A stretch of DNA of 64,000 nucleotides from an uncultured Gammaproteobacteria bacterium (GTDB taxonomy: Bacteria; Patescibacteriota; Patescibacteriia; Magasanikbacterales; GWA2-37-8). This document shows, one piece after another, positions 8,172-48,942 of this stretch (position 1 is its first letter; each line of letters begins with the position of its first letter). The DNA lies in NCBI GenBank assembly GCA_964634875.1, contig CAZWKA010000003.1, positions 16,591 to 80,590 of the forward strand. The letters run 5' to 3'. A program made the position numbers and the translations under genes. Under the pieces are notes generated by a model, which worked only from the letters and a program-made list of their open reading frames with translations, did no database searches and was not told the origin of the DNA.

Positions 8172-8753
8172 TTATCCCACTTGTCTTATCCAATCTCGGA
8201 TGATGCTTTGAATTCTCCCTATCTCTATTTCCGGCAATTCTCCGGTATGCATAATTATGTTTCTTGATAGTTCTAGGTCGTTAAAACGAGATGATATCCA
8301 GTGTTGATCGGGAAATAGATCGGAGAAATTCTCCCAATTAGCAACTATGATTTGAGCCAAGTTGCCAAACATTGTGTAACCTATTAACGAAGAGGATCGT
8401 GGAGTGTGGTATTTATTTTTCTCTTCTTTAGCCCTTAGATTTTCTGCTTGTTCCTGTACTTTCTTGGGAACATTGTCTTTCCACCATCCAATCCCAGCTC
8501 TCAATAAAAGTCGTTCTTCAATTAATTCTCGAACTGCGTTTTCCAAACAAAAGAACGATTGGTATGTCTTTGACATAAGACTAGCTCGATGTACTAAGAT
8601 TGGGCTGAAATCAGTTTCTTCCAAGACAGTGTCTTCCTCTTCTTTAACTATTCCCGAGTCAATCCCATCTCTCGTAAGTTTAATTAAGCTTTCGGTTGCA
8701 AGAATGCCATTAAAAACTAATTTTTTGAGCTGCTGTAAATTTGTTTTGTACAT
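8172..8753 (-). CDS. HEPN-domain protein (Rx4H motif), second gene of a two-gene cassette
   Basis: C-terminal LSRNIIMHTGEL matches Rx4-6H. Mostly helical composition. The local DNA is AT-rich, about 37% GC by eye. Confidence 0.55.
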   Translation of the reverse strand: MYKTNLQQLKKLVFNGILATESLIKLTRDGIDSGIVKEEEDTVLEETDFSPILVHRASLMSKTYQSFFCLENAVRELIEERLLLRAGIGWWKDNVPKKVQEQAENLRAKEEKNKYHTPRSSSLIGYTMFGNLAQIIVANWENFSDLFPDQHWISSRFNDLELSRNIIMHTGELPEIEIGRIQSIIRDWIRQVG

Positions 8754-8762
8754 AAGCCGGCC

Positions 8763-9389
8763 TTACTCAAATAAATTTTCTCTCAAGCTTTTAAAAATTG
8801 CACTATAGACACTTATATCAGTTGTTGCTGGCAAGTGTATTTCTATATTGTGATGGAAACTTAATGCTTTGGCTTCTTCCGGCGTTATCGGTTTTTGTGT
8901 TTTTTCATTTGTGCCACCACCTTTTTTTGTCTTCTCTTCTGTGGTTGGAGGAGGTGATATTTTAGGCGAAGCGCCAAATTTTGCTAGACCAACCAGTGCT
9001 TTATATGTCGCAAAGTATCTAGTGACCGTTTTCTCATCTTTGCCCGTAACTCGTGCCATTGCCCCTTTTATTGTATCTTCTGATTGCGTGTGCATCTCTG
9101 TATTGATTGCATAGATGTCTTTGTAGAGTTCAATTAATCTTTCCCCAATGACAAAAGGGTGGTCTTGTCGATCTTTCAGTCGGTCATAGTATTCTGTTGG
9201 AGCTCCGTCATCATTAAGTATATTAAGTCGTTTTAGAAGGGGGATTATTGCTCGGTCGTTAGAGCTTGCAAATCCCATTTGTTTAAGAAGTTCATTAGTA
9301 AATTTTTTTGGTTTTTCCGCAACTTTTATTTGTTCGAGAATAAAACTTATTTTATTGTTAGCGACCATGTAAGGGTATGTTTCTGGCAT
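8763..9389 (-). CDS. hypothetical protein, upstream partner of the HEPN gene (possible antitoxin/specificity partner)
   Basis: 208 aa. Stop lies 9 bp before the HEPN start on the same strand. No recognisable catalytic motif. Lys/Glu-rich middle region. Confidence 0.5.
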   Translation of the reverse strand: MPETYPYMVANNKISFILEQIKVAEKPKKFTNELLKQMGFASSNDRAIIPLLKRLNILNDDGAPTEYYDRLKDRQDHPFVIGERLIELYKDIYAINTEMHTQSEDTIKGAMARVTGKDEKTVTRYFATYKALVGLAKFGASPKISPPPTTEEKTKKGGGTNEKTQKPITPEEAKALSFHHNIEIHLPATTDISVYSAIFKSLRENLFE

Positions 9390-9515: not shown

Positions 9516-10664
9516 TCATTTCCTCCTCGTAAACCACCAGCTCGCCAACAGCGTCGTTAACGGCACAGCCAGCACCAGCACGCAACTGCCCACCAGCGTA
9601 CGCACTAATTCTTCGGCAATAAAATTACTATTAAGCATGATCCACAACTGGGTGGATTTTTGCATGCTGTAGAGTAATAAGAGTGGGAACGACACGCCGA
9701 CGTAGGCGAGGACGAGCGTGTTCACGAGCGAGGCAATATGTTCGCGGCCAACCGAGAGGCCGCTTTTGTATAATTGAGCCAGGGAAACGGTGGGGTTGGC
9801 AGTATGGATTTCTTCGATTACAGCGGCTTGGGCTGTGGTGATGTCGTCAAGGACACCCAGGACGCCAATGAGAATGCCGCCGAGGAGTACGCCGCGCAGA
9901 TCTATCGTGCCGGCACCAAGTTGCAGGTAAAAGGCTTCTTCGGTACCGGTGCCTGCCAGTTTGGCAAAACGAACAAAGACAATGTCGATAATAATAGCGG
10001 CGCCAAGGGTGAGGAGGGTGCTGATAAGGGCGATGGTAGTGCGGCGATTAAAGCCGTGCGAGAGGTAGAGCGAACAAAAACAAATCAGGAGGGCGGCAAT
10101 GATGCAAGCGACCAACGGGTCGTGCCCGGCAGCGATGCGAGGGATTAGGAAGCGGAAAATGACCAGGGTTGTAAAGACTAGGCCGAGGATGGAGGTGAGA
10201 CCGCGCTTGCGGCCAAAGAATATGGCGAGCGCAAAAAAGACGGCGACAAGTATGAGGACGTTGGGCAGGCGGTACTTATCGGTAATGTAATAAAAGTCTT
10301 CTTTAATGCCGCCGGCGGGCTTGGTAATTATTACCACGTCACCCGCTTGTACTTTTTGGTATTCCTGGATGGCAAAGAGGCCACCGTGGTCGATAGTAAT
10401 TTTTTTACCTTTTTCATCGCCGCTCACAATCTCAAGTTCCAGTTTTTGGTATTCCTGCGGCGTACCATCCGCGTCTTTGGTGCCGCTCTCCACGACCTGC
10501 AGAACTTTGGCGCGGGCAAAGATGTCCGGTGCATCATTTACAATGGGCGCGTCTAAGTCGAGCGGCGCTTCTTCGAGTGTCTGCATCTGTGCCCGGTGGG
10601 GGAAAAATGCGGACAAAAAGAGAATGATACAAAAGAGGCTGCGGGTAAAGAAAGTGTGGTGCAT
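9516..10664 (-). CDS. YibE/F-family integral membrane protein
   Basis: 382 aa. N-terminal extracytoplasmic domain followed by about 8 TM helices, the typical YibE/F layout. Confidence 0.7.
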   Translation of the reverse strand: MHHTFFTRSLFCIILFLSAFFPHRAQMQTLEEAPLDLDAPIVNDAPDIFARAKVLQVVESGTKDADGTPQEYQKLELEIVSGDEKGKKITIDHGGLFAIQEYQKVQAGDVVIITKPAGGIKEDFYYITDKYRLPNVLILVAVFFALAIFFGRKRGLTSILGLVFTTLVIFRFLIPRIAAGHDPLVACIIAALLICFCSLYLSHGFNRRTTIALISTLLTLGAAIIIDIVFVRFAKLAGTGTEEAFYLQLGAGTIDLRGVLLGGILIGVLGVLDDITTAQAAVIEEIHTANPTVSLAQLYKSGLSVGREHIASLVNTLVLAYVGVSFPLLLLYSMQKSTQLWIMLNSNFIAEELVRTLVGSCVLVLAVPLTTLLASWWFTRRK

Positions 10665-10739
10665 ATGCTTAGCAGTATACCATGAAGCAGACTGTCCAAA
10701 AACTAGGCGACCGCCAGGGAGATGGCGGTCGAGAGGGGG

Positions 10740-11006
10740 CTAGAAACCGTACGATTGTCGGGTGCGGTTGAAGTAGGGTTTGGGAAAGCTAAAGCTGTAG
10801 TAGAATGAATCATCGGGGTAGACGACGCGGTACCAGTTTTGGGTAGGGCGAGTAGGTGGGTGCCAGGGGTCTGCCGGTTTACTGTAATAGTAAAACTGGG
10901 TCGATCCGTTGATGAGGACAGCTTGGGCTGGGGCAGCCAATGCGCCCGAAATGCCGAGAAATAGCGCGAAGCCAAGGGCGGTGGCTATAAGGGTATTTTT
11001 TGTCAT
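10740..11006 (-). CDS. small secreted Tyr-rich protein
   Basis: ATG at 11006. Signal peptide MTKNTLIATALGFALFLGISGALAAPAQA. About 88 aa. Confidence 0.4.
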   Translation of the reverse strand: MTKNTLIATALGFALFLGISGALAAPAQAVLINGSTQFYYYSKPADPWHPPTRPTQNWYRVVYPDDSFYYSFSFPKPYFNRTRQSYGF

Positions 11007-11137
11007 AGAGAGTAAATCAGGTTTGTGTGTGAGTATAGCACACCAGGCTGAAGGTACAAACACTACAACCGCCAGGTGTAGTGGCGGTTGCGATGTCTCT
11101 ATGGCCTTCGGATTAGCGAAGGATATGTGCAGTATAT

Positions 11138-11150
11138 GCAACTAAGTTGC
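11138..11150. promoter_or_regulatory. palindrome GCAACTAAGTTGC (copy 1 of an operator-like repeat)
   Basis: Part of the ~27-bp motif GCAACTAAGTTGCGTTTGTCAAATAGG. Sits between two minus-strand small-protein genes. Confidence 0.5.
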
Positions 11151-11179
11151 GTTTGTCAAATAGGAGTTGTGGAAAACTG

Positions 11180-11545
11180 TTAATAACTAGAGTACCTGCC
11201 GTAGTATACGACGGGTGTAGGGCGGTAGCTGTGGTACGTAGGGTAATTGCGCGTTTGCCACGAGCGTAGCGGAGCATATAAACGGGTTGGTGTGGTACGC
11301 AAATAGGCGGGGGCAGGCGGGGGCACGTAACCGCGCTTGGTGACAGGCTGGTTGGGTATCGTGGTGGGGGAGGCATGGTCGGCAGCATCATGTCCATCTG
11401 CTGCATGTTCTGTTTCTTCGTTGTCGTCGTGGCTGTGCCCCGGTTCAACTATGGTCCAGGCCTGGGCTGATTCAGTTGGTCTGAGAATGGCGAGGCTAAG
11501 CGCCAGAAAGAAAAAAATTCCTATCCACGCGTGTTTGTTTTTCAT
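11180..11545 (-). CDS. small secreted His/Asp-rich protein (possible metal-binding)
   Basis: ATG at 11545. Signal peptide MKNKHAWIGIFFFLALSLAIL. Acidic His-rich segment HSHDDNEETEHAADGHDAADH. Confidence 0.4.
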   Translation of the reverse strand: MKNKHAWIGIFFFLALSLAILRPTESAQAWTIVEPGHSHDDNEETEHAADGHDAADHASPTTIPNQPVTKRGYVPPPAPAYLRTTPTRLYAPLRSWQTRNYPTYHSYRPTPVVYYGRYSSY

Positions 11546-11637
11546 AGGTAGTAGATTACATATATACAGTACTCTTGTAAGCCTCATGGTTTGGGGCGCA
11601 CAAGAGTGCTCGAGGCCGACGATCCGACCTCGGTTTG

Positions 11638-12309
11638 TTATTCGTCTGCTGGTTCGTCGATCAGTGTGCTGGGTGCTCGGGGAACCAAATCTAGCTGAAG
11701 GTACTGTGGCGACGCGGGTTGTTTTGGTTCTGTTTCCCGCTTGAGAGCGAATTTCCACCCCAGCATGAGCGGTACCAAGTGCCATTCCCAAGGGTGCCCG
11801 TTCGCCAAGTTGAGCGGTGCCAGCATGGCTGCTTCGCTGCCGATGACAAAACCTTTGTACCGGAAACTGATGCCGCCGAGCAGCGGGCCGAGTTTGACTT
11901 CGGTCTGGCTCTGGTAGGGCTTTTCAATTTCTAGCACGATTCCAGGCAGGTGCAGTTCGAGCGACCAATGCTCGCTAAGGTGGATATCAAGCCCGCCGGT
12001 AAGGTGAATGTCGCCACCCGCCCGGTCGCCACCAATTGCCGCGTGCAGGCCGGCAACAATGCCAAAGTCGACGCTGCCCGCTTCGGCGAAAGGGAATTCA
12101 AACTCGAAACAGAGCGGGGTCATGAGTTGGAGGATAAATCCGCTTCCACCCTTGAGGCCAGTTGTGGCCGTGCGGGAACTATCGTATTTGGTGGGGGAGG
12201 CTACCGCTTGGCCGGAAAATATTGGGCCACCGCACCACAAGGCTGAGGGGGATTCGGCCCTCGCAACAATGCTCCAGGCAAGGAGCGTGACGATAACGAG
12301 GTAGCGCAC
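11638..12309 (-). CDS. secreted beta-strand-rich protein (porin/OmpW-like pattern)
   Basis: GTG start at 12309 with AAGGAGA 5 nt upstream. Signal peptide. Alternating hydrophobic pattern and a C-terminal aromatic residue. Confidence 0.4.
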   Translation of the reverse strand: MRYLVIVTLLAWSIVARAESPSALWCGGPIFSGQAVASPTKYDSSRTATTGLKGGSGFILQLMTPLCFEFEFPFAEAGSVDFGIVAGLHAAIGGDRAGGDIHLTGGLDIHLSEHWSLELHLPGIVLEIEKPYQSQTEVKLGPLLGGISFRYKGFVIGSEAAMLAPLNLANGHPWEWHLVPLMLGWKFALKRETEPKQPASPQYLQLDLVPRAPSTLIDEPADE

Positions 12310-12324
12310 AGGCTTCTCCTTAAA

Positions 12325-12337
12325 GCAACTTAGTTGC
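12325..12337. promoter_or_regulatory. palindrome GCAACTTAGTTGC (copy 2)
   Basis: Lies 16 bp upstream of the GTG start of the 11638..12309 gene on its promoter side. Extended motif GCAACTTAGTTGCACTTGTACCACAGG. Confidence 0.5.
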
Positions 12338-12368
12338 ACTTGTACCACAGGAATACCTAGTTGTCAAT

Positions 12369-12381
12369 GCAACAAAGTTGC
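12369..12381. promoter_or_regulatory. palindrome GCAACAAAGTTGC (copy 3)
   Basis: Upstream of the Fur-family regulator gene. Extended motif GCAACAAAGTTGCGTTTATCCACAGG. Confidence 0.5.
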
Positions 12382-12450
12382 GTTTATCCACAGGTGCTAC
12401 TTGAAAAAACTCAGTATTTTTGCTAGACTACCAGCATTAAAGCATTTTTT

Positions 12451-12891
12451 ATGACTACTTCGCACCAAGTTATCGCTGACCTTAAGGATCGGGGAGAGCG
12501 CATTACCGAAATCCGGCGCATCTTGGTAGACATTCTCGCCAAAAGTCACAAGCCGTTATCGGTGCAAGATATTTTGGCGAAATTAAAAATTCGCTGTATT
12601 GAGGCGAATAAAACCACCGTCTATCGTCAATTGGAAACGCTCCATAAGTATAATTTTATTTACGAAGTGCGTTTGGCGGATCGTTCGGTTTTGTACGAGC
12701 TTGCCAGTGAAGACGATCACCACCATCATTTAGTGTGTCTCGGTTGCGGTACGATAGAAGATGTGTCGTTTAAGGACGACGTGGAACGCCAGGAAAAAAA
12801 TATTTTAAAAATAAAGAAATTTAAAGTTGTGCGCCACTCGCTCGAATTTTTCGGCTGGTGCGCTAAATGTCAGAAAAAATATGGCAAATAA
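12451..12891 (+). CDS. Fur-family metalloregulator (Zur/Fur-like)
   Basis: 146 aa. HHHHLVCLGCG ... CAKC metal-binding motifs and a winged-helix N-terminus. Confidence 0.8.
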   Translation: MTTSHQVIADLKDRGERITEIRRILVDILAKSHKPLSVQDILAKLKIRCIEANKTTVYRQLETLHKYNFIYEVRLADRSVLYELASEDDHHHHLVCLGCGTIEDVSFKDDVERQEKNILKIKKFKVVRHSLEFFGWCAKCQKKYGK

Positions 12892-13810
12892 TTTTTGGAA
12901 ACAAGTATCGCGTGCTCTCGGTATCGTTGTTGTTCTCGCAGCAGTAGCTTTGGTTTTTTATTTTTTGGTTACGCGAGAAAATAAAATTACCCCACCCGAT
13001 GATCGACTTACAGTTAGCACTTCCTTTTATCCGTTGACGTTTTTAGTTGAGGGTATTGCGGGCGATCTTGCAATAGTGAACACCATTACCCCGGCCGGGG
13101 CAGAACCGCATGAGTACGAACCAACGACGCAGGATCTGGTAGCGATCGAAAAAAGCAAGCTACTTTTTTTGAACGGCGCTGGTTTTGAATCGTGGGCCGA
13201 GGGGTATGTTTCTGCTGGCGCCACTATTGTTCCGGTCGCTGACACGCTGGTAACGCAGAATTTTGTTGCGGGAGAAAGTGTGGCCCGCGATCCGCATGTC
13301 TGGCTTGACCCCACGCTCGCCAAAGCCTCGGCTCAGATTGTGCTTGATGCCTTGGTTGCAGCTGACCCTGGTCATGAACAAGAATACAAGGTAAACGCCG
13401 AAACCTTTTTAAAACAATTTGATGATCTCGACGCCGCCTTTCAGGCAGGCCTTGCTACATGCGCACGCCGTGATATTGTTACGGGGCATGCTGCGTTTGG
13501 GTATTTGGCTGCCCGGTACACATTAACCCAGGTACCGATTTCGGGTTTGTCGCCGGACGAAGAGCCTTCACCGCGGCGGATGGCCGAGGTGGCTGAGTTT
13601 GTTAAAAATAGTGGGGTAGAGTATATTTTCTTTGAAAGCCTGGTGAACCCAGAGCTTGCAGTAACAATTGCCAATGAAGTTGGTGTCAAAACGCTAGTAC
13701 TTAATCCGCTTGAAGGGTTGACGCCAGACGAAGTATCTCAAGGTAAAAATTATTTTACGGAAATGCGCCAAAACCTTGCTCACCTTAGAACCGCTCTCCA
13801 ATGTCAGTAG
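12881..13810 (+). CDS. metal (Zn/Mn) ABC transporter substrate-binding protein, TroA/ZnuA family
   Basis: Overlaps the regulator stop by 11 nt. N-terminal anchor. Cluster A-1 binding-protein motifs EPHEYEPT and DPHVWLDP. Confidence 0.75.
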   Translation: MANNFWKQVSRALGIVVVLAAVALVFYFLVTRENKITPPDDRLTVSTSFYPLTFLVEGIAGDLAIVNTITPAGAEPHEYEPTTQDLVAIEKSKLLFLNGAGFESWAEGYVSAGATIVPVADTLVTQNFVAGESVARDPHVWLDPTLAKASAQIVLDALVAADPGHEQEYKVNAETFLKQFDDLDAAFQAGLATCARRDIVTGHAAFGYLAARYTLTQVPISGLSPDEEPSPRRMAEVAEFVKNSGVEYIFFESLVNPELAVTIANEVGVKTLVLNPLEGLTPDEVSQGKNYFTEMRQNLAHLRTALQCQ

Positions 13811-14565
13811 ACCATAACAAAAATATACTCGAAGTTAAAAACGTTTCGTTTGCCTATAGTGCAAATGCACCGGTTTTGACCGCTATTTCTCTCAATATTC
13901 ATTCGGGGGATTATTTAGGTGTTATTGGTCCGAACGGTGGCGGCAAGACCACGCTTCTCAAAATTATGCTCGGACTCCTTCAGCCAACGAGTGGGAGTAT
14001 TTCTTTGTTCGGCCAAGACATCCGCGATTTTAAAGATTGGCCAGCGATTGGGTATGTGCCTCAGAAGGCGGTTAATTTTGACCTCAAGTTTCCGGCTACT
14101 GTCAAAGAAGTAGTAGCAATGGGGCGGTTTGGCAAACGGGGGTTGTTACGTCTTCCGACCAAAGAAGACCGGAACCAGGTGGAAGAAGCGTTGCGCCAGG
14201 TTGATATGATTGAATACCGAGACCGTTTGATTGGTGATTTGTCGGCTGGGCAGCAGCAGCGCGTGTTTATTGCCCGCGCACTGGCCACGGAACCGAAAAT
14301 TATTTTTTTGGATGAACCAACGGTTGGAGTTGATGTTGCAACCCAGGAACAATTTTATCGTTTGCTGGAAAAACTAAACCAAACACTCGGTCTTACCCTC
14401 GTGTTGGTGTCGCACGATATTGATGTTATTGCGAACGAAGCAACGGAACTGGCGTGTATTAACCAGACTTTGGTGTATCACGGCAGCCCGAAAGAATTTG
14501 TAAAAGGGGAGTACTTGCAACAATTATATGGTAAGAACCTTAAGTTTATTTTGCATGATCACTAA
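13801..14565 (+). CDS. metal ABC transporter ATP-binding protein
   Basis: Walker A GPNGGGKTT, signature LSAGQQQR, Walker B IIFLDEP. Confidence 0.85.
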   Translation: MSVDHNKNILEVKNVSFAYSANAPVLTAISLNIHSGDYLGVIGPNGGGKTTLLKIMLGLLQPTSGSISLFGQDIRDFKDWPAIGYVPQKAVNFDLKFPATVKEVVAMGRFGKRGLLRLPTKEDRNQVEEALRQVDMIEYRDRLIGDLSAGQQQRVFIARALATEPKIIFLDEPTVGVDVATQEQFYRLLEKLNQTLGLTLVLVSHDIDVIANEATELACINQTLVYHGSPKEFVKGEYLQQLYGKNLKFILHDH

Positions 14566-14568
14566 AGG

Positions 14569-15384
14569 TTGAAAAGTAAAAGTATGTTTTTAGAAATTTT
14601 TCAATATTCATTTATCCAGCGTGGCCTTGAGGCTGGGATTTTGATTGCGATTATTGCCCCGCTTATTGGTATTTTTTTGGTACTCCGCCGGTATTCTTTG
14701 ATTGCGGATACGCTGTCACACGTTTCGCTCGCCGGTGTGGCGATTGGTCTTCTGGCAGGTATTAACCCCATCATTACTGCGCTTGCTACTTCGGGCGCGG
14801 CTGCCCTCGCAATTGAAAAATTGCGTAGCTCCAAAAAAGTATACGGCGAAACTGCCTTGTCAATTTTTCTTTCAGGGGGCCTCGCGCTCGCGGTGGTGCT
14901 TATTAGTCTGGCGCACGGCTTCAATGTTAACTTGTTTAGTTACTTGTTTGGGAGCATTGTTACGGTAAAGCAAAGTGATGTTATGTTGATCGCTGTTTTG
15001 GGCTTGGTCATCATTGTCCTGTTATTTTCATTTTATAAAGAGCTTGTCTATATTTCATTTGACGAAGAGGCGGCCAAAGTCAGCGGGATACCGGTAAAGG
15101 CAATCAACTTTATTTTTATCTTGCTGGCGGCTATGACGGTCGCGCTTGCGATTCCAATTGTTGGTATCCTTTTGATTTCGGCCTTGATTGTGATCCCGGT
15201 AGTTACGGCGCTACAGCTTAAGAAAAGTTTTTCTACTACCTTGTGGTATGCCGAGGGCTTTTCAATTTTTTCGGTGGTGAGTGGAATCCTGCTCTCGTAT
15301 TATTTTGACCTCTCGCCGGGTGGTACGATCGTGCTTATTACTTTGGCTTTGTTTAGCCTAATTTTAGTCTTTAAACGGGCTTAA
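14569..15384 (+). CDS. metal ABC transporter permease (ZnuB-like)
   Basis: 271 aa with 8-9 TM helices. Operon position. Confidence 0.8.
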   Translation: MKSKSMFLEIFQYSFIQRGLEAGILIAIIAPLIGIFLVLRRYSLIADTLSHVSLAGVAIGLLAGINPIITALATSGAAALAIEKLRSSKKVYGETALSIFLSGGLALAVVLISLAHGFNVNLFSYLFGSIVTVKQSDVMLIAVLGLVIIVLLFSFYKELVYISFDEEAAKVSGIPVKAINFIFILLAAMTVALAIPIVGILLISALIVIPVVTALQLKKSFSTTLWYAEGFSIFSVVSGILLSYYFDLSPGGTIVLITLALFSLILVFKRA

Positions 15385-34349: not shown

Positions 34350-36398
34350 ATGCCTGCTAAACCTCAGCATTTCAGCAAGACGCCGACGCATTCCCAGGTA
34401 AAATCGAGACTGGCCGGTATTTTAATACTCGTTGTTTTTTGTGCAGTTGTGGCTGCGCCAGCCTACGCCAATAAAGGTATTGATTGGGTAAACAACACCG
34501 CCAACCTCGGGTTGCCCCGATTACCGGATAACGGTTACAACCTTGGTCTTGATCTCCAGGGTGGCGCACACCTCGTGTACCAAGCGAAAACAGATGCTAT
34601 TGCCGAAGCTGATAAAGCTAGTTCGGTTGAGGGTGTGCGTGATGTTATCGAGCGTCGTGTCCGTGGTGGTTTGGGTGTATCAGAACCGCTCGTCCAGACG
34701 ACTAAGGTTGGGAGTGATTACCGCATCATTGTTGAACTGCCTGGCGTGACGGATGTTAATCAGGCGATTAAGAGTATTGGCGAAACACCTGTTCTAGAAT
34801 TTAAAGAAGAAAATACTGCCCCACCACGGGAATTGACTGCAGCCGAAACAAAACAGCTCACTGATTTTAATAAAGCCGCTGATACAAAAGCGAAAGAAGC
34901 CCTTCGGGCAGTGCAGCGCGGCATGAACTTTGCTGAAGCCGCGGCTAAGTATAGTGAGGATGAAAAAACTAAGACCGCCGGCGGAGATCTAGGTTTTATT
35001 GATGAGACCGTCTATCCAGAATTATTTGCCTGGGCTAAAACCCACAAAGTAAATGAAGTCGGTAATGCTTTGGTTACGACGCCGACAGGTCTGAATGTCG
35101 TAAAAAAAGTAGCAGAAAAAGAGGGTGAAAAAGAAGTTACAGCTTCGCACTTGCTGATTTGTTTTGCCGGTGCCACGCGCTGTGATGACGCGCAATATTC
35201 TAAGGAAGATGCTCTTAAGAAAATCCAGGAAATTAAAGCAACGATTACTCCAAAAAACTTTGCCGAAAAGGCAAAAGAATTTTCGACTGAACCCGGGGCT
35301 GACCAGAGCGGTGGCGTACTTGGCACTTTTAAAAAAGGAGCTTTGGTAAAACCGTTTGAGGATGCTGTTTGGGATCAGAAAGTTGATACCATTTCTGAGC
35401 CAGTGGAAACGGAGTTTGGTTACCATCTTATCCATAAGACCGGTGAGGCAATCGCTAAGCAGTACCAGGTTGCTCGCATTTTGGTAGCCACTAAAACCAA
35501 GACAGATATCGTCCCACCAGCAGAACAGTGGAAATCAAGCGGCCTTACCGGTAAGCAGCTCGAACGAGCCGAGGTTACCCAAAACCAAATTACCGGAGAT
35601 ATCCAGGTAAGCCTTAATTTTGATGATGAAGGTTCTAAGTTATTTGCTGATATTACCGGCCGTAATGTGGGGAAAGCAGTAGCTGTTTTCCTTGACGGTG
35701 AAATTATCAGTGCCCCGGTTGTTAACGCGGCAATTACCACGGGGAGTGCGGTAATTACGGGTGGGTTTAGCTTGACTGACGCTAAGCTTTTGGCGCAGCG
35801 CCTTAATTCAGGTGCGTTGCCGGTACCAGTTGAGCTCCTCAGCCAGCAAACCGTGGACGCTACGCTTGGTGCTGATTCGCTTGATAAGAGTTTCCGTGCT
35901 GGTGTCTTTGGTTTGATTGCAGTTATGGTCTTTATGATTCTTTATTACCGCTTACCAGGCCTTTTGTCCGTACTATCCTTGGCTTTCTACGCCCTCCTGA
36001 GTTTGGCGGTATTCAAATTGATGGGTGTAACATTGACGCTCTCTGGTATTGCTGGGTTTATTCTTTCCATCGGTATGGCGGTTGACGCTAATGTGCTTGT
36101 ATTCGAGCGTCTTAAAGAAGAGTTGGCTGCGGGTCGAACGCTTAAGTCAGCTACTGAAGAAGCCTTTATTCGTTCGTGGCCTTCAATTCGTGATAGTCAT
36201 ATTACCGCCCTCATCAGCTGTGTCTTCTTGATTTGGTTTGGTACTGGGTTTATCCAAGGTTTTGCCGTTATCTTGGGAATTGGTACTTTAATTAACCTGT
36301 TTACCGCCATCACGGTAACGAGGACAGTCATGCGGTCGGTTTTCCCTTTCCTTAATGAAAAAGGAAATATTCTCTTTTTAGGATATAAAAAAGATTAA
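34350..36398 (+). CDS. secD: protein translocase subunit SecD with two inserted parvulin-type PPIase domains
   Basis: The SecD N-terminal TM helix and C-terminal 6-TM RND-like domain are present. Two parvulin signatures are inserted in the periplasmic domain: AGGDLGFIDETV and SGGVLGTFKKGALVKPFEDAVW. Confidence 0.8.
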   Translation: MPAKPQHFSKTPTHSQVKSRLAGILILVVFCAVVAAPAYANKGIDWVNNTANLGLPRLPDNGYNLGLDLQGGAHLVYQAKTDAIAEADKASSVEGVRDVIERRVRGGLGVSEPLVQTTKVGSDYRIIVELPGVTDVNQAIKSIGETPVLEFKEENTAPPRELTAAETKQLTDFNKAADTKAKEALRAVQRGMNFAEAAAKYSEDEKTKTAGGDLGFIDETVYPELFAWAKTHKVNEVGNALVTTPTGLNVVKKVAEKEGEKEVTASHLLICFAGATRCDDAQYSKEDALKKIQEIKATITPKNFAEKAKEFSTEPGADQSGGVLGTFKKGALVKPFEDAVWDQKVDTISEPVETEFGYHLIHKTGEAIAKQYQVARILVATKTKTDIVPPAEQWKSSGLTGKQLERAEVTQNQITGDIQVSLNFDDEGSKLFADITGRNVGKAVAVFLDGEIISAPVVNAAITTGSAVITGGFSLTDAKLLAQRLNSGALPVPVELLSQQTVDATLGADSLDKSFRAGVFGLIAVMVFMILYYRLPGLLSVLSLAFYALLSLAVFKLMGVTLTLSGIAGFILSIGMAVDANVLVFERLKEELAAGRTLKSATEEAFIRSWPSIRDSHITALISCVFLIWFGTGFIQGFAVILGIGTLINLFTAITVTRTVMRSVFPFLNEKGNILFLGYKKD

Positions 36399-37686: not shown

Positions 37687-39153
37687 ATGGAAACTTTTTT
37701 GACACTACCTTTTGGCATATCGTTCAGCCTCTCGTTTTGGCAGAACCTTTTTTTGTTACCTCCATACCAGCTCATTATCATGATTTTTGCGATCGGTGGC
37801 TGGGCAGTCTTGGCGCTTATTTTTTTCTTTATGGGCTCTGAGCTCTGGAAGGACTACCGCCAGGGTAAGTACACTAAAAATTGGCAGTGGGTTGTTTTAG
37901 CAGTAGATGTTCCGGCGCTTTTTATCCAAACGCCAAAAGCAGTTGAGCAGATTTTCGTACATCTGAGTGGGGCTAAAACAACCCCAAATGTGGGCGAAAA
38001 GTATTGGCAAGGTAAAAAGCAGAAGAGTTTTAGCTTTGAAATTGTCAGTATTGAAGGGTATATCCAGTTTTTAGTCCGTTCTGAAGTTGAATACCGTGAT
38101 TTAGTAGAGGCGGCTATTTATGCCCAGTATACTGAAGCCGAGATTACGGAGGTTGAAGATTACGTTGATAATATTCCTACGCACTATCCCCACCCAAATT
38201 ATGATATGTTTGGCATCGAATTTGCGCTCGATAAACCAAGTCCATTTCCCATTCGTACATACCCTAGTTTTGAGTATAACCTGAGTAAAGATGCGGTATT
38301 TAGTGACCCCATGGCGGCAATTCTGGAAAATTTTAGCCGTATTGGGCGAGGAGAAAATTTTTGGATGCAAATTATTTTAGAACCAATTAGTAGTAAGTGG
38401 AAAGAAGAGGGGATCGAACTTGTTAAATCAATTATAGCGAACAAGGGGTATTCGGGTGGACACGGAGGCCATGGTGGCGGTGGTAGCATGTTAACGGGTG
38501 CTTTGTCGGCAGTCATGGGGGTTTTGCACGTCATCATTAAAGAAATTGGCAGTGCACTTCTTGGTGGGGGCGAAGAGGAACATGGTGGAGGGCATGAGGA
38601 CGCACACGAAGAAGGCAAACTTAGTGACCTGTCACCTGGTAATAAGACGGTCATTGAGGCGGTTGAACAGAAAATTTCTAAAATTGGTTTTAAAACTAAG
38701 TTGCGTATTCTGTATGCGGCGCGTAAAGAAGTGTTTAACCCAAGCAAATGTCTTGACGGTTTTGTGGGGGCGATGAGTCAATTTAACATCCAAGACAGCA
38801 ATTCCCTGGTGCCGCACCATGATACTTCCGCGCAGTATTTATTTGCTAAATCCCGAACCGACCATCACAAACACCATTTTACTAGCGCTTTTAAGAAACG
38901 TAAGTTGAAGGCGCTTGGGGATCCTTATATCCTCAATATTGAAGAGCTAGCGACAATTTGGCATTTCCCGCTGCCGTTTGTTAAAACGCCACTTATTCAG
39001 AAAGCTGGTGCCAAGCGTGCCGAACCTCCGATGGGTCTACCCGTCGAAGCCAGCGAAAGCCCGCTCAAGCGCCGTACGCCGGTCCCTCAGGCAGCGCCGC
39101 CGCAATCAACCGTGCCGGTACAGGAAGCACCCGAAGATTTGCCCTATGGTTAA
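37687..39153 (+). CDS. membrane protein homologous to the N-terminal (non-ATPase) half of the VirB4-like ATPase at 48943..51498, with Gly/His-rich insert
   Basis: N-terminal TM helices. FEIVSIEGYIQFLVRSEVEYRDLVEAAIYAQYTEAEITEVEDY parallels FEIVVKENKISFYVAVPDKIRDLVEQQIHAQYPHAEITEESDY in the 851-aa protein. EELATIWHFPLPFVKTP parallels EEMASFWHLPVPHTETP. No P-loop. Confidence 0.5.
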   Translation: METFLTLPFGISFSLSFWQNLFLLPPYQLIIMIFAIGGWAVLALIFFFMGSELWKDYRQGKYTKNWQWVVLAVDVPALFIQTPKAVEQIFVHLSGAKTTPNVGEKYWQGKKQKSFSFEIVSIEGYIQFLVRSEVEYRDLVEAAIYAQYTEAEITEVEDYVDNIPTHYPHPNYDMFGIEFALDKPSPFPIRTYPSFEYNLSKDAVFSDPMAAILENFSRIGRGENFWMQIILEPISSKWKEEGIELVKSIIANKGYSGGHGGHGGGGSMLTGALSAVMGVLHVIIKEIGSALLGGGEEEHGGGHEDAHEEGKLSDLSPGNKTVIEAVEQKISKIGFKTKLRILYAARKEVFNPSKCLDGFVGAMSQFNIQDSNSLVPHHDTSAQYLFAKSRTDHHKHHFTSAFKKRKLKALGDPYILNIEELATIWHFPLPFVKTPLIQKAGAKRAEPPMGLPVEASESPLKRRTPVPQAAPPQSTVPVQEAPEDLPYG

Positions 39154-41818: not shown

Positions 41819-43075
41819 TTATTTTACAATCGGTACTTCTTTAATTGCCGTAGTAAAGCGTTGTGATTTGTGTTCGCTCAGCATACTCCATTTCTTTTTA
41901 ATGCCACTCCCAGCCATAAAAAGGGTGTCTTTTCCAAAATGACGGTTAACCTGGTCAACCGCTTTCATAAGTTCTTTATTTTTTTCAAACGCAACCGTTG
42001 TAAAGAGGTTTTGTTGAATCGTGTTTTCTGGTAGTAGCCCCACGCAGCAGACGCCGGCTTTGGCGTAGCGGTAGCCCTCACGGTAAATGGCGTCTACCAG
42101 CTCCATGGCCTTGCTAACTAAGAGTGGGGTGTATGAACTGGCTACGGGCAGGTGAATGCCTTTGCTGCCGATGTATTTTTTATCAAGGTTAAAATGGTTG
42201 GTGCGGATGTAAATATAAAAATATGAGGTTACTAATTTCTCCTCGCGCAGTTTTGCTGCGGCGCGTTCGGTGTATGTTGCCACCGCTTCTTTGAGCTCGT
42301 CTTTGGTAGTGATCGGTGTGCCAAACGAGCGCGTGCACATAATGCCTTTTTTTGGTTCCGGATTATCATCCAGCTTGAAGCAGGGGATGCCGCGCAGCTC
42401 GTAGACAATATGAAGGCCAGAGATGCTCAGATTTTTACGGATCCAAGCGTCTGGGCGGGCAAGGAGTTGTCCGGCGGTCATGACACCAAGCACCTTTAAT
42501 TTTTTGGTTGATTTTCGGCCGATGCCCCAGAGCTCTTCAACAGGTAGGTCGTGCAGGATGAAGTCTACGTCCTCGTTGGCAATGTCGCAGACACCGTTAA
42601 AGTAGGGGTATTTTTTGGCTAGGTGGTTTGCTACTTTGGCAAGAACCTTAGTTTTGGCAATACCGATTGAAACCGGGATGCGTGTCCACTGACGCACGGT
42701 CTGACGAATTTTTTGCCCTAAGGCTTCATTGCCCTGATCACCGGTAAATTTTAAGAAAGCTTCATCGATGGAATATACCTCTATTTCATCAGTGAATTGT
42801 TCAAGGGTCGTCATAACCCGCTGTGAGATGTCACCGTAGAGTGAAAAATTTGATGAAAAGACTTTGACATTATTTTTCTGAATAATATCTTTATATTTAA
42901 AGCATGGCGCCCCCATAGGAATACCTAAGTCTTTTACTTCTTTGGAACGCGAAATAAAGCAGCCGTCGTTATTCGACAAAACAGCTACCGGCACTTTTTC
43001 GAGAGCTGGTTGAAACGCTCGTTCACACGAGACAAAAAAATTATTGCAATCGACGAGAGCAAAGACTTCGGACAC
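41819..43075 (-). CDS. umuC: Y-family translesion DNA polymerase (UmuC-like)
   Basis: N-terminal ALVDCNNFFVSCE...VLSNNDGC...SIDEAF motifs. Confidence 0.85.
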   Translation of the reverse strand: MSEVFALVDCNNFFVSCERAFQPALEKVPVAVLSNNDGCFISRSKEVKDLGIPMGAPCFKYKDIIQKNNVKVFSSNFSLYGDISQRVMTTLEQFTDEIEVYSIDEAFLKFTGDQGNEALGQKIRQTVRQWTRIPVSIGIAKTKVLAKVANHLAKKYPYFNGVCDIANEDVDFILHDLPVEELWGIGRKSTKKLKVLGVMTAGQLLARPDAWIRKNLSISGLHIVYELRGIPCFKLDDNPEPKKGIMCTRSFGTPITTKDELKEAVATYTERAAAKLREEKLVTSYFYIYIRTNHFNLDKKYIGSKGIHLPVASSYTPLLVSKAMELVDAIYREGYRYAKAGVCCVGLLPENTIQQNLFTTVAFEKNKELMKAVDQVNRHFGKDTLFMAGSGIKKKWSMLSEHKSQRFTTAIKEVPIVK

Positions 43076-43080
43076 AGAGG

Positions 43081-43518
43081 TTATTTTACTTGACGAACCA
43101 CACCGGTCACGACACCGAGAATGGTAAAATTGTCGTCGGGGTTAATAAGGAGTGGGGCATAGTCCGGGTTTTCGGCTTTGAGCCAGGTTTTGCCTTTATC
43201 CTGCCAAAAGCGTTTCACGAGGAATTCACCTTCTACTGCCGCGACTACAATTTTATTGTGCATGGGTCGAAGCGATGCGTCAACCACGAGCAAGTCGCCG
43301 TCACAAATAGCGGCGCCTTCCATAGAAGAGCCGCTGACGCGAACCAGGTAGGTAGCCGGACGATTGTGGATTAAAAGATCGTTCAGATCAATTGTGTCTT
43401 CCACGTAGTCGTCAGCAGGGGATGGAAAACCTGCGGAAAGCGGGCTCGAGTATAAAGGGAGTGTGGTCGTTTTGCTGGGGCGCGGTAGAAATAGTTTTGT
43501 AGTTTTAGAAAGTTCCAT
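43081..43518 (-). CDS. umuD: LexA/UmuD-like S24 peptidase (UmuD)
   Basis: Ser-Lys dyad context VSGSSMEGA ... VKRF. Stop lies 5 bp before the umuC start. Confidence 0.75.
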   Translation of the reverse strand: MELSKTTKLFLPRPSKTTTLPLYSSPLSAGFPSPADDYVEDTIDLNDLLIHNRPATYLVRVSGSSMEGAAICDGDLLVVDASLRPMHNKIVVAAVEGEFLVKRFWQDKGKTWLKAENPDYAPLLINPDDNFTILGVVTGVVRQVK

Positions 43519-43520
43519 AG

Positions 43521-44543
43521 CTATACCTGTGAATCAATGGTGGTCAATAGTTTAATGAATTCTTTAGTGTATTTTTGTGGATCAAGCGAAATACGGAAGT
43601 GTGTTTCGGAAATCGGTCGTACTAGGTTGAACGGGGCTTTATCTATGGCGCGTTTAAAATGTTCACGGATATGGGTGTCTGGCTTAATAAGCACAAATGT
43701 CGCATCCGATGAGTAGGCGGTAAAATGCTTGAGCTTGGCAACGCTAGTTATAAAGGTGTTTCGGTCGTTGATGATACGCTCACGCAGTTTTTTATAATAC
43801 CCGGTTGCGCCAAGGGCGGCAATGGCGGTTTCTTCTAATATTCGGCTAAATCCCAAATAATATGGCTGGTAGCCTAATAGTTTTTGCGCTTCGCTGCCAC
43901 AGAGTCCATAGGCGATACGCAGGCCTGCTAACGCGTAGAGCTTGGAAAATGTTCGGGTAATGATTGGGTTTTCGTAATTCGTAACTAGTTTTGTGGCAAG
44001 GGCATCTTCGTTTTTTCCGGCTAGTCCCGCGTAAGCGCCATCAATAATTACTAATGTTTTTTTAGAAATAGCTGTAAGTAATTTTTCTAAATCACGAACG
44101 GCTACAGAGTTGCCGGTGGGGTTGTTGGGCGAAGTAATGAGAATAACTTTTGGTTTTGTTTTTTTATATTGGCGAATACAGTCATCGATATCAAAAATAA
44201 ATTTTTTACCGGTATCGATCATTTTAAAAGTGTTGATAGTAAAGCCTCGGGCAGCCGCGTATTTGTCGTAATAGACATAGTGGTACTCGTGCGTCAGTAC
44301 GGAATCTTTCTTGGGGTCAAGGCTGTTAAAGACAGCGCGCAAAAAATCTTCACTTCCGTAGCTAAGCGCAATCTGGTTTTCGGGAAGTTTAAATTTCTGG
44401 GCGAGTTTTGGAACAAGGAGCGAGGTGTAGTATCCGGCTAAGTACTGCGAAGCGTGGCTTGGTTTAAAATTCTTGAGCACTTTTAAACAGGCCGGAGCAG
44501 GTCCCACGGTCATTTCGTTCCGGTTGAGGAGGATTTGGCGCAT
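43521..44543 (-). CDS. class I/II PLP-dependent aminotransferase (histidinol-phosphate aminotransferase-like)
   Basis: 340 aa. Lys-containing SFSKLYALAGLRIAY motif typical of HisC/CobD-type enzymes. Confidence 0.6.
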   Translation of the reverse strand: MRQILLNRNEMTVGPAPACLKVLKNFKPSHASQYLAGYYTSLLVPKLAQKFKLPENQIALSYGSEDFLRAVFNSLDPKKDSVLTHEYHYVYYDKYAAARGFTINTFKMIDTGKKFIFDIDDCIRQYKKTKPKVILITSPNNPTGNSVAVRDLEKLLTAISKKTLVIIDGAYAGLAGKNEDALATKLVTNYENPIITRTFSKLYALAGLRIAYGLCGSEAQKLLGYQPYYLGFSRILEETAIAALGATGYYKKLRERIINDRNTFITSVAKLKHFTAYSSDATFVLIKPDTHIREHFKRAIDKAPFNLVRPISETHFRISLDPQKYTKEFIKLLTTIDSQV

Positions 44544-44547
44544 ATCT

Positions 44548-45126
44548 TTAGATGAATTTGTCAGCCAATTCAGTATTTCGGTAGTTTATAAAATACTGTA
44601 AAATTGTCTCAAGATCAGTGCTGTCATAGACAACAGACGAAAAATCTATTTTACTAAATTTTTTTTCGCAGAGTTCTTGGAAGAATACCGTTAGTGTTCC
44701 GTAGAAGTTTTTGTAATTATACACTGCAATTGGTTTGTCCAATAATTTGTTTATTTTCCCACCAGCAACAGTTATCAGTTCCTCAATGGTTCCATATCCT
44801 CCGGGCAGAATAAGCATCGCATCGCATGTGCTAATAATCCGATCTTTTCTCTCTCCGATGGTATCTACCATAATCGTTTGGTCTAGATGGGGGTAGGCTT
44901 CGTACCCTTTGGTTACTGCTATTAAATCTTTTGACATTATTCCGATGAGTTCGGTACCGCCAGCTTTTTTGTAGGTCTCAGCTAATTCGAGCATCATCCC
45001 GTAAGCTGTTCCGCCGTAGACGATAGAATGGCCTTTTTCGGCCAGTGTTTTGGCGATGAGGCGAGTAAGTTCGATATACTCGTCACCAACATGCAGGGAA
45101 GAAGTTAGTGAGATACCTATTTTCAT
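44548..45126 (-). CDS. LOG-family protein (cytokinin riboside 5'-monophosphate phosphoribohydrolase-like)
   Basis: PGGYGTIEEL motif within a Rossmann-like context. Confidence 0.7.
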   Translation of the reverse strand: MKIGISLTSSLHVGDEYIELTRLIAKTLAEKGHSIVYGGTAYGMMLELAETYKKAGGTELIGIMSKDLIAVTKGYEAYPHLDQTIMVDTIGERKDRIISTCDAMLILPGGYGTIEELITVAGGKINKLLDKPIAVYNYKNFYGTLTVFFQELCEKKFSKIDFSSVVYDSTDLETILQYFINYRNTELADKFI

Positions 45127-45132
45127 ATAAGT

Positions 45133-45549
45133 TTAGTTAGTAAGATTGATGAGGCTTAGATCGCCGTTGATTACCAGTGGGTTCATGCCCAGTAATTCAT
45201 CGTGTAAAATACCGTCGGGTAGAGGATTATAAAAAAAGATTTTTTTATTCAGTTCAAAAGCTTTGAATACCTCAAGGAAGGTTGCTCCGCCAATATAATT
45301 AGGCTGGCCATTTTTTTCAAAATTGAGCACCAAAATGCCGTCTTGGGGGCGTATTTTAACTTCGTGCTCACGGATAGTGGCGGCTTTCCAGGTGAGGTAT
45401 TCGGCGCTGCCAGGAGTAAACGAAGCTTCTTTACCGGGTTCGTTGTAGCTAATCGGAAGGGTAATTTCGTGCCCACTGTCTTCCAAAATTTTTTTGATTG
45501 GTGAAATTTTATCGTAAAATGATTTGCTGCAGCAGATAAAAATTTTCAT
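45133..45549 (-). CDS. nucleoside 2-deoxyribosyltransferase-like protein (putative)
   Basis: 138 aa starting MKIFICCSKSF. Weak resemblance to NDT/DUF4406 flavodoxin-like proteins. Confidence 0.35.
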   Translation of the reverse strand: MKIFICCSKSFYDKISPIKKILEDSGHEITLPISYNEPGKEASFTPGSAEYLTWKAATIREHEVKIRPQDGILVLNFEKNGQPNYIGGATFLEVFKAFELNKKIFFYNPLPDGILHDELLGMNPLVINGDLSLINLTN

Positions 45550-45812
45550 ACTACTGTTTATTTTTTTGACTTAGTTTGCTGTATGATTCGAGTGTGGGGC
45601 AGTGTCAAGTTTAAGAAGCGCTGTTCCTCGCGCACTCCCTCCGGGGTTAACAAAATTTAACAATAGAAAAACAGGAGTCAGGACTTTTGTTGCGGTCTAC
45701 GAAAAAATCGCTGAACTTGTCGTTTCCCATACGTTACCATACAACCCCTATCATTTCTAGGTCAAAATAATTGCTTTTTTTACTATACTAAGGTAGGTTT
45801 AGCCCAAGGAGC

Positions 45813-46226
45813 GTGGATATGAAGAACATCATTTTTGCTTCCTTGGCAGTTTCCTGTGGCATTGGATGTGCGCATCAGCCGCGCGTGGCTCCGCTACTGC
45901 CGGTCAAATCACGCCCAGGCCTTAACCGCGAGAAGATCCTGGTCGAAGTTGCTCCCTCAAACTTGTTTGGGCAGCATTATGCAGGCCTTCGGGCTGTGGT
46001 CATATCATTTCAGCCCCAAGAACGTGTCTGGACGTATTCTGGGGGCAACTATGGCCGTACCCCGGTATGCCCCGGTGAGCGTTCGGTGCCATTTTTTTTC
46101 CAGCCGCGTCCAGAGTACGTGTCTCCGGACCTGCGCAACCTCAAAACAGGGCGACGAGCCAAAATGTACTTTTTTCCAAGTACAACCAGGCAAGTTGAGG
46201 TGATCTTTATTTGTCCGGATATGTAG
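45813..46226 (+). CDS. small lipoprotein/secreted protein in a moderately GC-elevated segment
   Basis: Signal peptide MKNIIFASLAVSCGIGCA. No homolog recognised. Confidence 0.4.
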   Translation: MDMKNIIFASLAVSCGIGCAHQPRVAPLLPVKSRPGLNREKILVEVAPSNLFGQHYAGLRAVVISFQPQERVWTYSGGNYGRTPVCPGERSVPFFFQPRPEYVSPDLRNLKTGRRAKMYFFPSTTRQVEVIFICPDM

Positions 46227-46376
46227 CTAACCCTGCCTCCATGGTGTGCGTGGGGTTAGAAAAAGATGTATATTAAAAAATCCCTCCTACCGATATTCGT
46301 TCGCTACCTGCGGGGACGAGTGTTGGCGAGGGATTTTTTATTTTTTAACGGCTGCTATGTGGGATGTATAGCTGTG

Positions 46377-46447
46377 TTCGGGGACCAGGATTCGAACCTA
46401 GATACACAGCTTCAGAGGCTGTAGTCCTACCATTAGACGATCCCCGA
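46377..46447 (-). tRNA. tRNA-Gln (anticodon CTG)
   Basis: On the minus strand. Acceptor TCGGGGA/TCCCCGA, D-stem GTCT/GGAC, anticodon stem ACAGC/GCTGT with loop CTCTGAA, T-arm GGTTCGAATCC. Confidence 0.7.
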
Positions 46448-46459
46448 ATTTTTGTTGTA

Positions 46460-47200: not shown

Positions 47201-47206
47201 ATGCGG

Positions 47207-48862: not shown

Positions 48863-48942
48863 ATCAGAAAGTGAGAAGCTAAAAACGAAAAGTGTAAAAT
48901 ATTGGTGTCGCCGCGACGACTCGATTATTTTTAGTTTTTATT

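Follow-up and report, generated by a model that had tools for sequence, protein, structure and literature searches.

Exported orphan proteins and candidate palindromic operators beside a putative Zur regulator in an uncultured Magasanikbacterales bacterium

Several extracytoplasmic accessory proteins are regulated by Zur. The exoprotein ZepA of Anabaena is Zur-repressed, carries a signal peptide and is beta-rich and extracellular; it has a His/acidic unstructured N-terminus, a PEP-CTERM anchor and the motif H-X2-9-H-[FY]-H, and combines a sporadic distribution with a role in zinc uptake (PMC10957091). PA4063 (PMC8561739) and Zcp/DUF4198 (PMC12663993) are reported to be small Zur-regulated periplasmic zinc-binding proteins, PA4063 binding zinc via disordered His-rich loops (PMC8561739). 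A Zur-dependent small RNA, ZinS, has been described from Staphylococcus aureus (PMC13586535). Here we describe a locus within a stretch of 64,000 nucleotides (nt), referred to as the window (assembly GCA_964634875.1, contig CAZWKA010000003.1, positions 16,591 to 80,590; deposited as an uncultured Gammaproteobacteria bacterium and placed by GTDB in Magasanikbacterales, GWA2-37-8), in which three genes for small exported proteins, here called A, B and C, adjoin a Fur-family regulator and a zinc-type ATP-binding cassette (ABC) importer. Judging from the sequence, we consider it about evenly balanced that A, B and probably C are lineage-specific Sec-exported additions to a small Zur regulon, with B acting as a zinc collector in trans. 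The firm ground for this reading consists of the structure of the genes, the presence and conservation of the operator copies, a zinc-type binding protein lacking a His-rich loop, and purifying selection on B.

Genes A (11638..12309, GTG start), B (11180..11545) and C (10740..11006) lie on the minus strand, as does the downstream yibE/F gene for a YibE/F-family membrane protein (9516..10664; Pfam PF07907, E 8e-70), and the regulator and importer genes lie upstream in divergent orientation. The initial annotation had proposed three minus-strand genes here, encoding signal-peptide proteins of 88, 121 and 224 amino acids (aa). The coordinates agree with the open reading frames (ORFs), and a separate gene caller recovered all three products from Logan contig L001, an independent assembly of the same DNA; the largest, however, has 223 aa plus the stop, the others having 121 and 88. 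The export signals were also supported by a heuristic scan that looked for a positively charged n-region, a hydrophobic core 7-15 residues long and small side chains at positions -3 and -1. Each protein has a positive n-region, a hydrophobic h-region and an AxA-type site, with cleavage predicted between ARA and E after residue 18 of A, between AQA and W after residue 29 of B, and between AQA and V after residue 29 of C. In the protein collection, B and C come from the Logan assembly only, and A and the regulator from NCBI too; B and C are probably missing from the annotation of the public genome record.

As a palindrome of the form yGCAACT-N-AGTTGCr, the operator has the 7-1-7 layout of Fur-family sites. 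Its core, GCAAC-N3-GTTGC, occurs in three exact copies in the 64 kb (12369-81, 12325-37 and 11138-50) against 0.09 expected, all within the cluster and all at promoters, and relaxed operator searches over the window found nothing above chance. Box 1 (ATGCAACAAAGTTGCGT, 12367..12383) borders directly on the -35 element of the promoter of A, box 2 (AAGCAACTTAGTTGCAC, 12323..12339) lies between the -10 element of A and its ribosome-binding site (RBS), over the expected transcription start, and box 3 (ATGCAACTAAGTTGCGT, 11136..11152) falls within the 17-nt spacer of a further, near-consensus promoter, P3 (11131..11159, minus strand; TTGACA, 17 nt, TATACT, 11/12 matches). The promoter of A (12339..12367, minus strand) was read from the sequence, having been left unflagged by the pattern scanner because its -10 element ends in G; the elements run box 1, TTGACA, 17 nt, TGgTACAAG, box 2, AAGGAG, GTG along that strand. 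Boxes 1 and 2 thus flank the -35 and the -10/start of this promoter, so that A and B would be made only when zinc is scarce. The two boxes bracket the promoter of A, whose transcript B probably shares: the A-B intergenic region contains two stable hairpins (11569..11632, minus strand, z -4.2) that lack a U-run, which argues for a single transcript. The hairpins may be RNA processing or stability elements.

A genome scan with the regulator returned two distant loci only and a metagenome scan with YibE/F one. At the first of these (L002) the box lies ~50 nt upstream of the start codon of a Fur homolog (40% identity), and a gene for a ZIP zinc transporter comes next. At L005 the Fur homolog is 57% identical, has a ZnuA-like gene behind it and reads away from a yibE/F gene of 63% identity; a perfect palindrome, ATGCAACTTTGTTGCAT, lies in the 119-bp gap between zur and yibE/F. 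At the locus of the only B homolog (L004), that gene is followed by a promoter with the box in its spacer, as at P3, and then by yibE/F. The recognition helix NKTTVYR is common to all three box-bearing regulators, and a 30%-identical homolog (L003) has no box and the helix GLATIYR. The palindrome therefore lies over promoters, at the locus of the regulator, and is kept in relatives, which are the marks of a Zur-regulon operator. The proposal of the initial annotation that the repeats act as the operator of a metal-starvation regulon is accordingly well supported as regards a Fur-family operator and the inclusion of these genes. YibE/F appears from these loci to be the conserved neighbour of regulator and box; in the literature we found no assigned function for it and no link to Zur. 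The ancestral layout may have resembled that of L005, with zur-znuA divergent from yibE/F and one operator between them. In the window, A with B, and separately C, lie between the zur-znuA and yibE/F units, and all three are absent from L005. L002 additionally has a second GCAAC-N3-GTTGC copy (8296-8308) inside the regulator coding region, where it encodes CNKVA, and a gene for a RuBisCO large-subunit homolog (10132-11595).

The identity of the sensed metal was approached through the importer. The regulator (12451..12891, plus strand; Pfam FUR, E 1.8e-23; predicted promoter 12401-12429) is followed by three genes for an AdcA/ZnuA-type zinc ABC importer (12881..15384, plus strand), comprising a binding protein (12881-13810), an ATPase (13801-14565) and an ABC-3 permease (14569-15384). 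The binding protein matches Pfam ZnuA at E 1.9e-76, and among proteins of known structure it comes closest to the zinc-specific AdcA (7jj8) and YcdH (2o1e), at E 2e-51; manganese and iron binding proteins match at E 1e-31 or weaker. Its motifs EPHEYEP, DPHVWL, GHAAFGY and FFE align with AdcA 7jj8 and YcdH 2o1e, and we take them to be the metal ligands, as in those structures. With the profile match and a His-His-His(+Glu/Asp) ligand set, rather than His-His-Glu-Asp, the protein falls in the ZnuA/AdcA group of cluster A-I. The His/Asp/Glu-rich loops of AdcA and YcdH fall in an alignment gap, and the binding protein of this operon is by this alignment one without a His-rich loop. An AdcA/YcdH-type binding protein makes Zur the most likely identity of the regulator, and zinc is the likely metal sensed.

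A regulator of the Fur or Mur type, sensing iron or manganese, would make the cluster an iron- or manganese-starvation response instead. Its best NCBIfam and PDB matches are indeed Fur proteins, and the ZnuA Pfam family includes manganese and iron binding proteins. All family matches of the regulator nevertheless lie far below curated cut-offs, AdcA, YcdH and Lmb match the binding protein about 20 orders of magnitude better than manganese or iron proteins do, the third ligand motif has His and not Glu, and at L002 the homologous regulator, which has this box too, is followed by a gene for a ZIP zinc transporter. We therefore regard an iron or manganese response as improbable and continue with Zur.

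The product of B is an exported bipartite protein. It carries GHSHDDNEETEHAADGHDAADH, the stretch that the initial annotation had singled out as plausibly metal-binding, and has an acidic His/Asp/Glu cluster at residues 30-58 (isoelectric point, pI, 4.3), followed at residues 59-121 by a basic tail rich in Tyr, Pro, Arg and Thr (pI 10.2). A search of 5.8e9 clusters returned a single homolog, P0006 (127 aa, E 2.7e-9, 36-47% protein identity), which retains a signal peptide (cleavage between ASA and R after residue 23), a His/Asp run (GHNDHNHDHEE) and the conserved motif SPTTIPNQPxxKRGYVPPPA, and whose Tyr/Pro tail closes with PVVYYGxYxxY. The His/Asp cluster of P0006 has kept its composition despite sequence divergence. 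Between the two genes the nonsynonymous divergence (dN) is 0.44 and the synonymous divergence (dS) 2.2, giving dN/dS ~0.2, and different codons encode 26 of the 51 identical residues, which together indicate purifying selection on a real protein. The best match of a B profile against the PDB was a ribosomal protein at E 1.6, and viral contigs, scanned with the alignment of B, gave no match.

Over the six reading frames of the 64 kb, no 40-residue windows are richer in Tyr plus Pro than those in the tails of B and C (15/40 and 16/40, respectively), as the mention of two Tyr/Pro-rich C-terminal parts in the initial annotation would lead one to expect. Paralogy of B and C was considered and found unsupported (BLASTP E 0.8-3, hhalign probability 0.3%), composition alone being common to them. 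Elsewhere in the window, a 488-aa protein without a family (37687-39153, plus strand) combines a His-rich stretch (HHDTSAQYLFAKSRTDHHKHH) with one rich in Tyr and Pro; a box-like site with three mismatches inside its gene (38690-38706) is probably due to chance.

Protein A is an exported, beta-rich orphan. Its gene has the RBS AAGGAG (12321..12316), the sole canonical one among nearby genes, in a window where only 4 of 44 genes have Shine-Dalgarno sites, and a coding score of +0.15 in frame against -0.05 to -0.71 in the other frames; with the signal peptide, these features make A a credible gene. The only homolog was A itself, both in a word-indexed search of 5.8e9 clusters and in an exhaustive phmmer search of 1.84e9 representatives; plasmids gave no tblastn match, and PDB sequences nothing at E <= 10. 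None of the three proteins had a Pfam match at E <= 0.1, an NCBIfam match at E <= 1, or a match in PHROGs or PADLOC, and PDB sequence searches likewise yielded no relative of any of them. The alternating beta-type pattern reported for the largest protein was upheld, the period-2 amphipathicity of mature A exceeding that of 999 of 1000 shuffles (z 3.3). Of its seven His residues (89, 102, 110, 114, 120, 172 and 177), those at 102, 110, 114 and 120 lie at even-numbered spacings inside amphipathic strands. Two AlphaFold2 runs, on the full length and on the mature core, gave all-beta models with a predicted local distance difference test (pLDDT) score of 37 and 34, at which a membrane barrel and a soluble sandwich or barrel are not distinguishable.

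This pattern raises the question of whether A is a small outer-membrane beta-barrel of OmpX or OmpW size, for instance a zinc-regulated pore, in a host with two membranes. Besides the amphipathicity, the low-confidence models place about eight strands in ~135 residues, turns are Gly-rich, and polar His, Asp and Glu residues sit on one face of the strands. Against a barrel, A matches no outer-membrane barrel family (Pfam, NCBIfam; OmpX, OmpW, OmpA-TM, PF13505), and it ends (...IDEPADE) in a 30-residue acidic tail with neither a hydrophobic anchor nor an aromatic terminal strand. The host also appears to have the wrong envelope. The N-terminus of the binding protein is a hydrophobic anchor that shows neither a lipobox nor an AxA site, as in single-membrane bacteria, the window encodes a sortase and a peptidoglycan-binding protein, and among the ~50 window proteins scanned, from 64 kb only, there were no outer-membrane markers such as Bam, Lpt or Tol. 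These features together point to a single-membrane envelope, which is probable for this host as far as 64 kb can tell, and we regard the outer-membrane barrel as improbable. For A we retain the reading of a secreted protein.

Promoter P3, which houses box 3, is followed by features expected of a small RNA or a leader. Its predicted transcript of ~70 nt (11055..11124, minus strand) consists of a 5' hairpin (11122..11105), the segment GGCCAUAGAGA, which is conserved and predicted to be single-stranded, and a terminator hairpin (11091..11065) with a U-run. The non-coding stretch around P3 is 81% identical between the window and L004, compared with 36-47% for protein B, and the terminator hairpin (free energy, dG, -31.1, z -5.4 in the window; dG -32.9, z -7.6 in L004) shows an A-U to G-C compensatory change in its stem. 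A G+C-rich hairpin, a U-run, a promoter upstream and no ORF are thus present, as expected by sequence of an intrinsic terminator and small RNA; there is no ATG between P3 and the hairpin. Rfam returned no family for the P3 leader at gathering or E <= 10, and sites complementary to GGCCAUAGAGA in the window are at chance level (14 against 11.4 expected).

The nonamer TGnTATACT occurs six times in the window against 0.87 expected and follows the P3 hairpin as TGcTATACT; it is, on this pattern, evidently the extended -10 element of the genome. Gene C has such a promoter without a box (TGCTATACT, 11032..11040, minus strand), 25 nt upstream of its start codon, and this promoter is conserved in L004. 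A second copy of the terminator-promoter module lies between C and yibE/F (10662..10748, minus strand), with a hairpin at 10731..10708, a T-run and TGGTATACT at 10682..10674; the ATG of yibE/F follows this -10 element by only 9 nt, which suggests a leaderless mRNA. TGnTATACT is often found within 25 nt of start codons, suggesting widespread leaderless or short-leader mRNAs, gene A with its AAGGAG being an exception. Since C and yibE/F have box-less promoters of their own and a terminator precedes them, transcripts from P3 probably stop after ~70 nt. The P3 RNA is a candidate for a Zur-repressed small RNA, or else for a leader that adds a zinc response to C and yibE/F by read-through.

Gene C is consequently the least secure member of the cluster. 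The initial annotation had placed all three genes under one operator; this holds for A and probably for B, which lie behind the boxes, but probably not for C. A terminator and a box-less promoter separate box 3 from C, making Zur control of C doubtful, and the gene is absent from L004. Its coding status is the weakest of the three, and it may be spurious, a chance ORF between two copies of the terminator-promoter module, which we consider doubtful but worth keeping in mind. The coding score of -0.06 is no better than that of one antisense frame, searches returned no homolog other than C itself, duplicated modules stand on both sides, and L004 has a repeat element in its place. On the other hand, the signal peptide of C is canonical, the gene has an extended -10 promoter to itself and a terminator behind it, and the independent gene caller found it; the mature part of C is basic and rich in Tyr, Pro and Phe, mirroring the tail of its neighbour B, and its missing RBS is normal for this genome. 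A real, exported C remains our preferred reading. As a separate observation, the leader segment CAUAGAGA (11094-11101, minus strand) is complementary to UCUCUAUG (11006-11013, minus strand), which covers the C start codon, and the minimum-energy fold of 11125..11000 pairs the two; such pairing could silence C on read-through transcripts, or be a chance match. In L004, two MITE-like copies (miniature inverted-repeat transposable element; 1-112 and 695-832, sharing ...AGGGATTCCTCCACT...GTCGGAATGACA) flank the B homolog and leader, one of them at the position that C takes in the window, and the window contains no copy of this element.

Base composition sets part of the cluster apart. The guanine-plus-cytosine (GC) content is 0.53 at 10001-12000 compared with ~0.46 for the window, consistent with the elevation remarked on in the initial annotation, and GC at third codon positions (GC3) is 0.57-0.64 for A, B, C and yibE/F (9516-12309) against 0.45 +/- 0.07 for reference genes. 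The zur and znuACB genes, unlike this block, have GC3 values typical of the window. The shift may reflect foreign origin or replacement of the block.

Several observations weigh against placing A, B and C in a Zur regulon for zinc handling. The high GC3 of the block, like the RBS of A, could be a sign of foreign origin and not of integrated function. The sole B homolog is on a 1.2-kb contig, so that neither A-B linkage nor Zur control of B is visible in relatives, and in the one relative where B, the promoter and yibE/F are all kept, C appears to be absent. By sequence A, B and C match no metal-binding family, and low-complexity stretches rich in His and Asp are found as well in proteins that have nothing to do with metals. 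The regulator itself is placed by NCBIfam and the PDB nearest Fur or PerR, not Zur. Finally, 20 bp separate box 1 from the predicted zur -35 element downstream of it, so that repression of zur-znuACB is not evident.

Such points would suit fast-evolving surface or adhesion proteins that handle no zinc, with Zur control being incidental or A, B and C being zinc-sparing replacements; Zur regulons include zinc-independent substitutes, for example ribosomal protein paralogs. All three proteins are orphan or near-orphan, GC3 and the RBS of A are atypical, C is missing in L004 and all three in L005, and sticky, basic Tyr/Pro-rich tails fit adhesion. This account leaves unexplained the two boxes placed precisely around the A promoter, the kept composition of the His/Asp cluster in the sole B homolog, and a binding protein without exactly such a His-rich element, and we think it unlikely, though a serious competitor. 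We therefore return to the zinc-regulon reading.

Under the zinc-regulon reading, the neighbouring Fur-family repressor would occupy the 7-1-7 palindrome when zinc is present, and A and the co-transcribed B, judging from promoter anatomy, would be produced only at low zinc. B would be disordered, its acidic His/Asp/Glu cluster capturing Zn2+ and its basic Tyr/Pro/Arg tail holding the protein on the cell envelope. Because the binding protein has no His-rich loop, B is proposed as a substitute: it could stand in for the missing loop in trans and hand zinc to the binding protein and/or YibE/F. A would be a beta-rich, His-bearing secreted accessory that binds zinc in the manner of ZinT or ZepA. 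Box 3 would control P3, the yibE/F promoter of relatives, which in the window would mostly give a short zinc-repressed RNA; C would respond to zinc only by terminator read-through, if at all, and YibE/F would be the conserved core partner of the regulon. That all four stronger proposals hold jointly (B as a free-standing loop protein, A as a new-fold counterpart of ZinT, YibE/F as a zinc or other metal transporter, and P3 as the source of a Zur-repressed small RNA) seems to us rather improbable.

If these proposals hold, modules joined in streptococcal AdcA would be split here into separate orphan proteins, and the His-rich zinc-collecting element of AdcA/ZnuA would seem able to exist as a separate secreted protein. 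Zinc acquisition in uncultivated bacteria with small genomes is essentially unstudied, and the candidate Zur-type operator could be used to rebuild regulons across many genomes. The YibE/F family, widespread but with no assigned function, is tied to zinc control in three independent loci, and the locus may hold a second case of a small RNA under Zur control. A and C would be clean cases of orphan genes that gained a signal peptide, a promoter and an operator in an existing regulon, which bears on the recruitment of new genes.

Other features of the window lie outside the regulon. Directly downstream of yibE/F, HEPN (Swt1-like) and DUF5343 proteins are encoded at 8172-9389 (minus strand, GC 0.37), and the pair matches the PADLOC candidate defence pair PDC-M34B / PDC-M34A (E 1e-65 / 3e-65). 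In SecD (34350-36398, plus strand), a peptidyl-prolyl isomerase segment of the PrsA/SurA type is inserted at about residues 257-376. The stretch 41819-51498 (minus strand) encodes a UmuD-like S24 peptidase (43081-43518), a UmuC-like polymerase (41819-43075), a C39-like peptidase (46460-47200) and a VirD4/TraD-like coupling protein (48943-51498), and may be the remnant of a mobile element.

Compared with described Fur-family operators, the box shares an inverted repeat of 15-17 bp, the 7-1-7 geometry and an overlap with the promoter core, and like them it lies next to the regulator's own gene and before metal-uptake genes. The Fur operator is TGATAAT-N-ATTATCA and the Bacillus Zur operator TCGTAAT-N-ATTACGA; the half-site yGCAACT is more G+C-rich and, to our knowledge, unlike published Fur, Zur or PerR half-sites. 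Unlike published operators of the family, the box is known from four metagenomic loci only. The P3 RNA resembles ZinS in being short, in its Zur-box promoter and in an intrinsic terminator just after a protein-coding gene, and it also resembles small RNAs that use the terminator of the upstream gene. It differs from ZinS in being predicted from sequence, in encoding no peptide and in having no targets above chance.

Among proteins, the His-rich loop of ZnuA/AdcA and ZinT (YodA/YrpE, the AdcA C-terminal domain) serve extracytoplasmic zinc uptake under Zur or AdcR control, as is proposed for B. The flexible His/Asp/Glu-rich loops of AdcA and YcdH are thought to collect Zn2+, and residues 30-58 of B are similar in composition; B differs in being a separate polypeptide with a basic Tyr/Pro-rich tail. 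The homology to ZinT/AdcA that the initial annotation had suggested checking was not found, A and B matching neither the ZinT Pfam family (PF09223, a lipocalin-like domain with His ligands) nor any solved ZinT/AdcA sequence, nor any other family. A shares a signal peptide and beta-richness with ZepA; it has the signal peptide only, with neither the PEP-CTERM anchor, or any C-terminal anchor, nor the H-X2-9-H-[FY]-H motif, there being no His pair at i and i+2, and ZepA models are confident whereas A is not modellable. By analogy, A may tentatively be viewed as a zinc-binding accessory comparable with ZinT or ZepA and outside both families. Like A, B and C, PA4063 and Zcp/DUF4198 are reportedly small and exported, and both are induced by zinc limitation; they are folded Gram-negative periplasmic proteins with defined families, whereas A, B and C match none in Pfam. 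What would be new here is this orphan-sequence variant of Zur-regulated extracytoplasmic accessory proteins.

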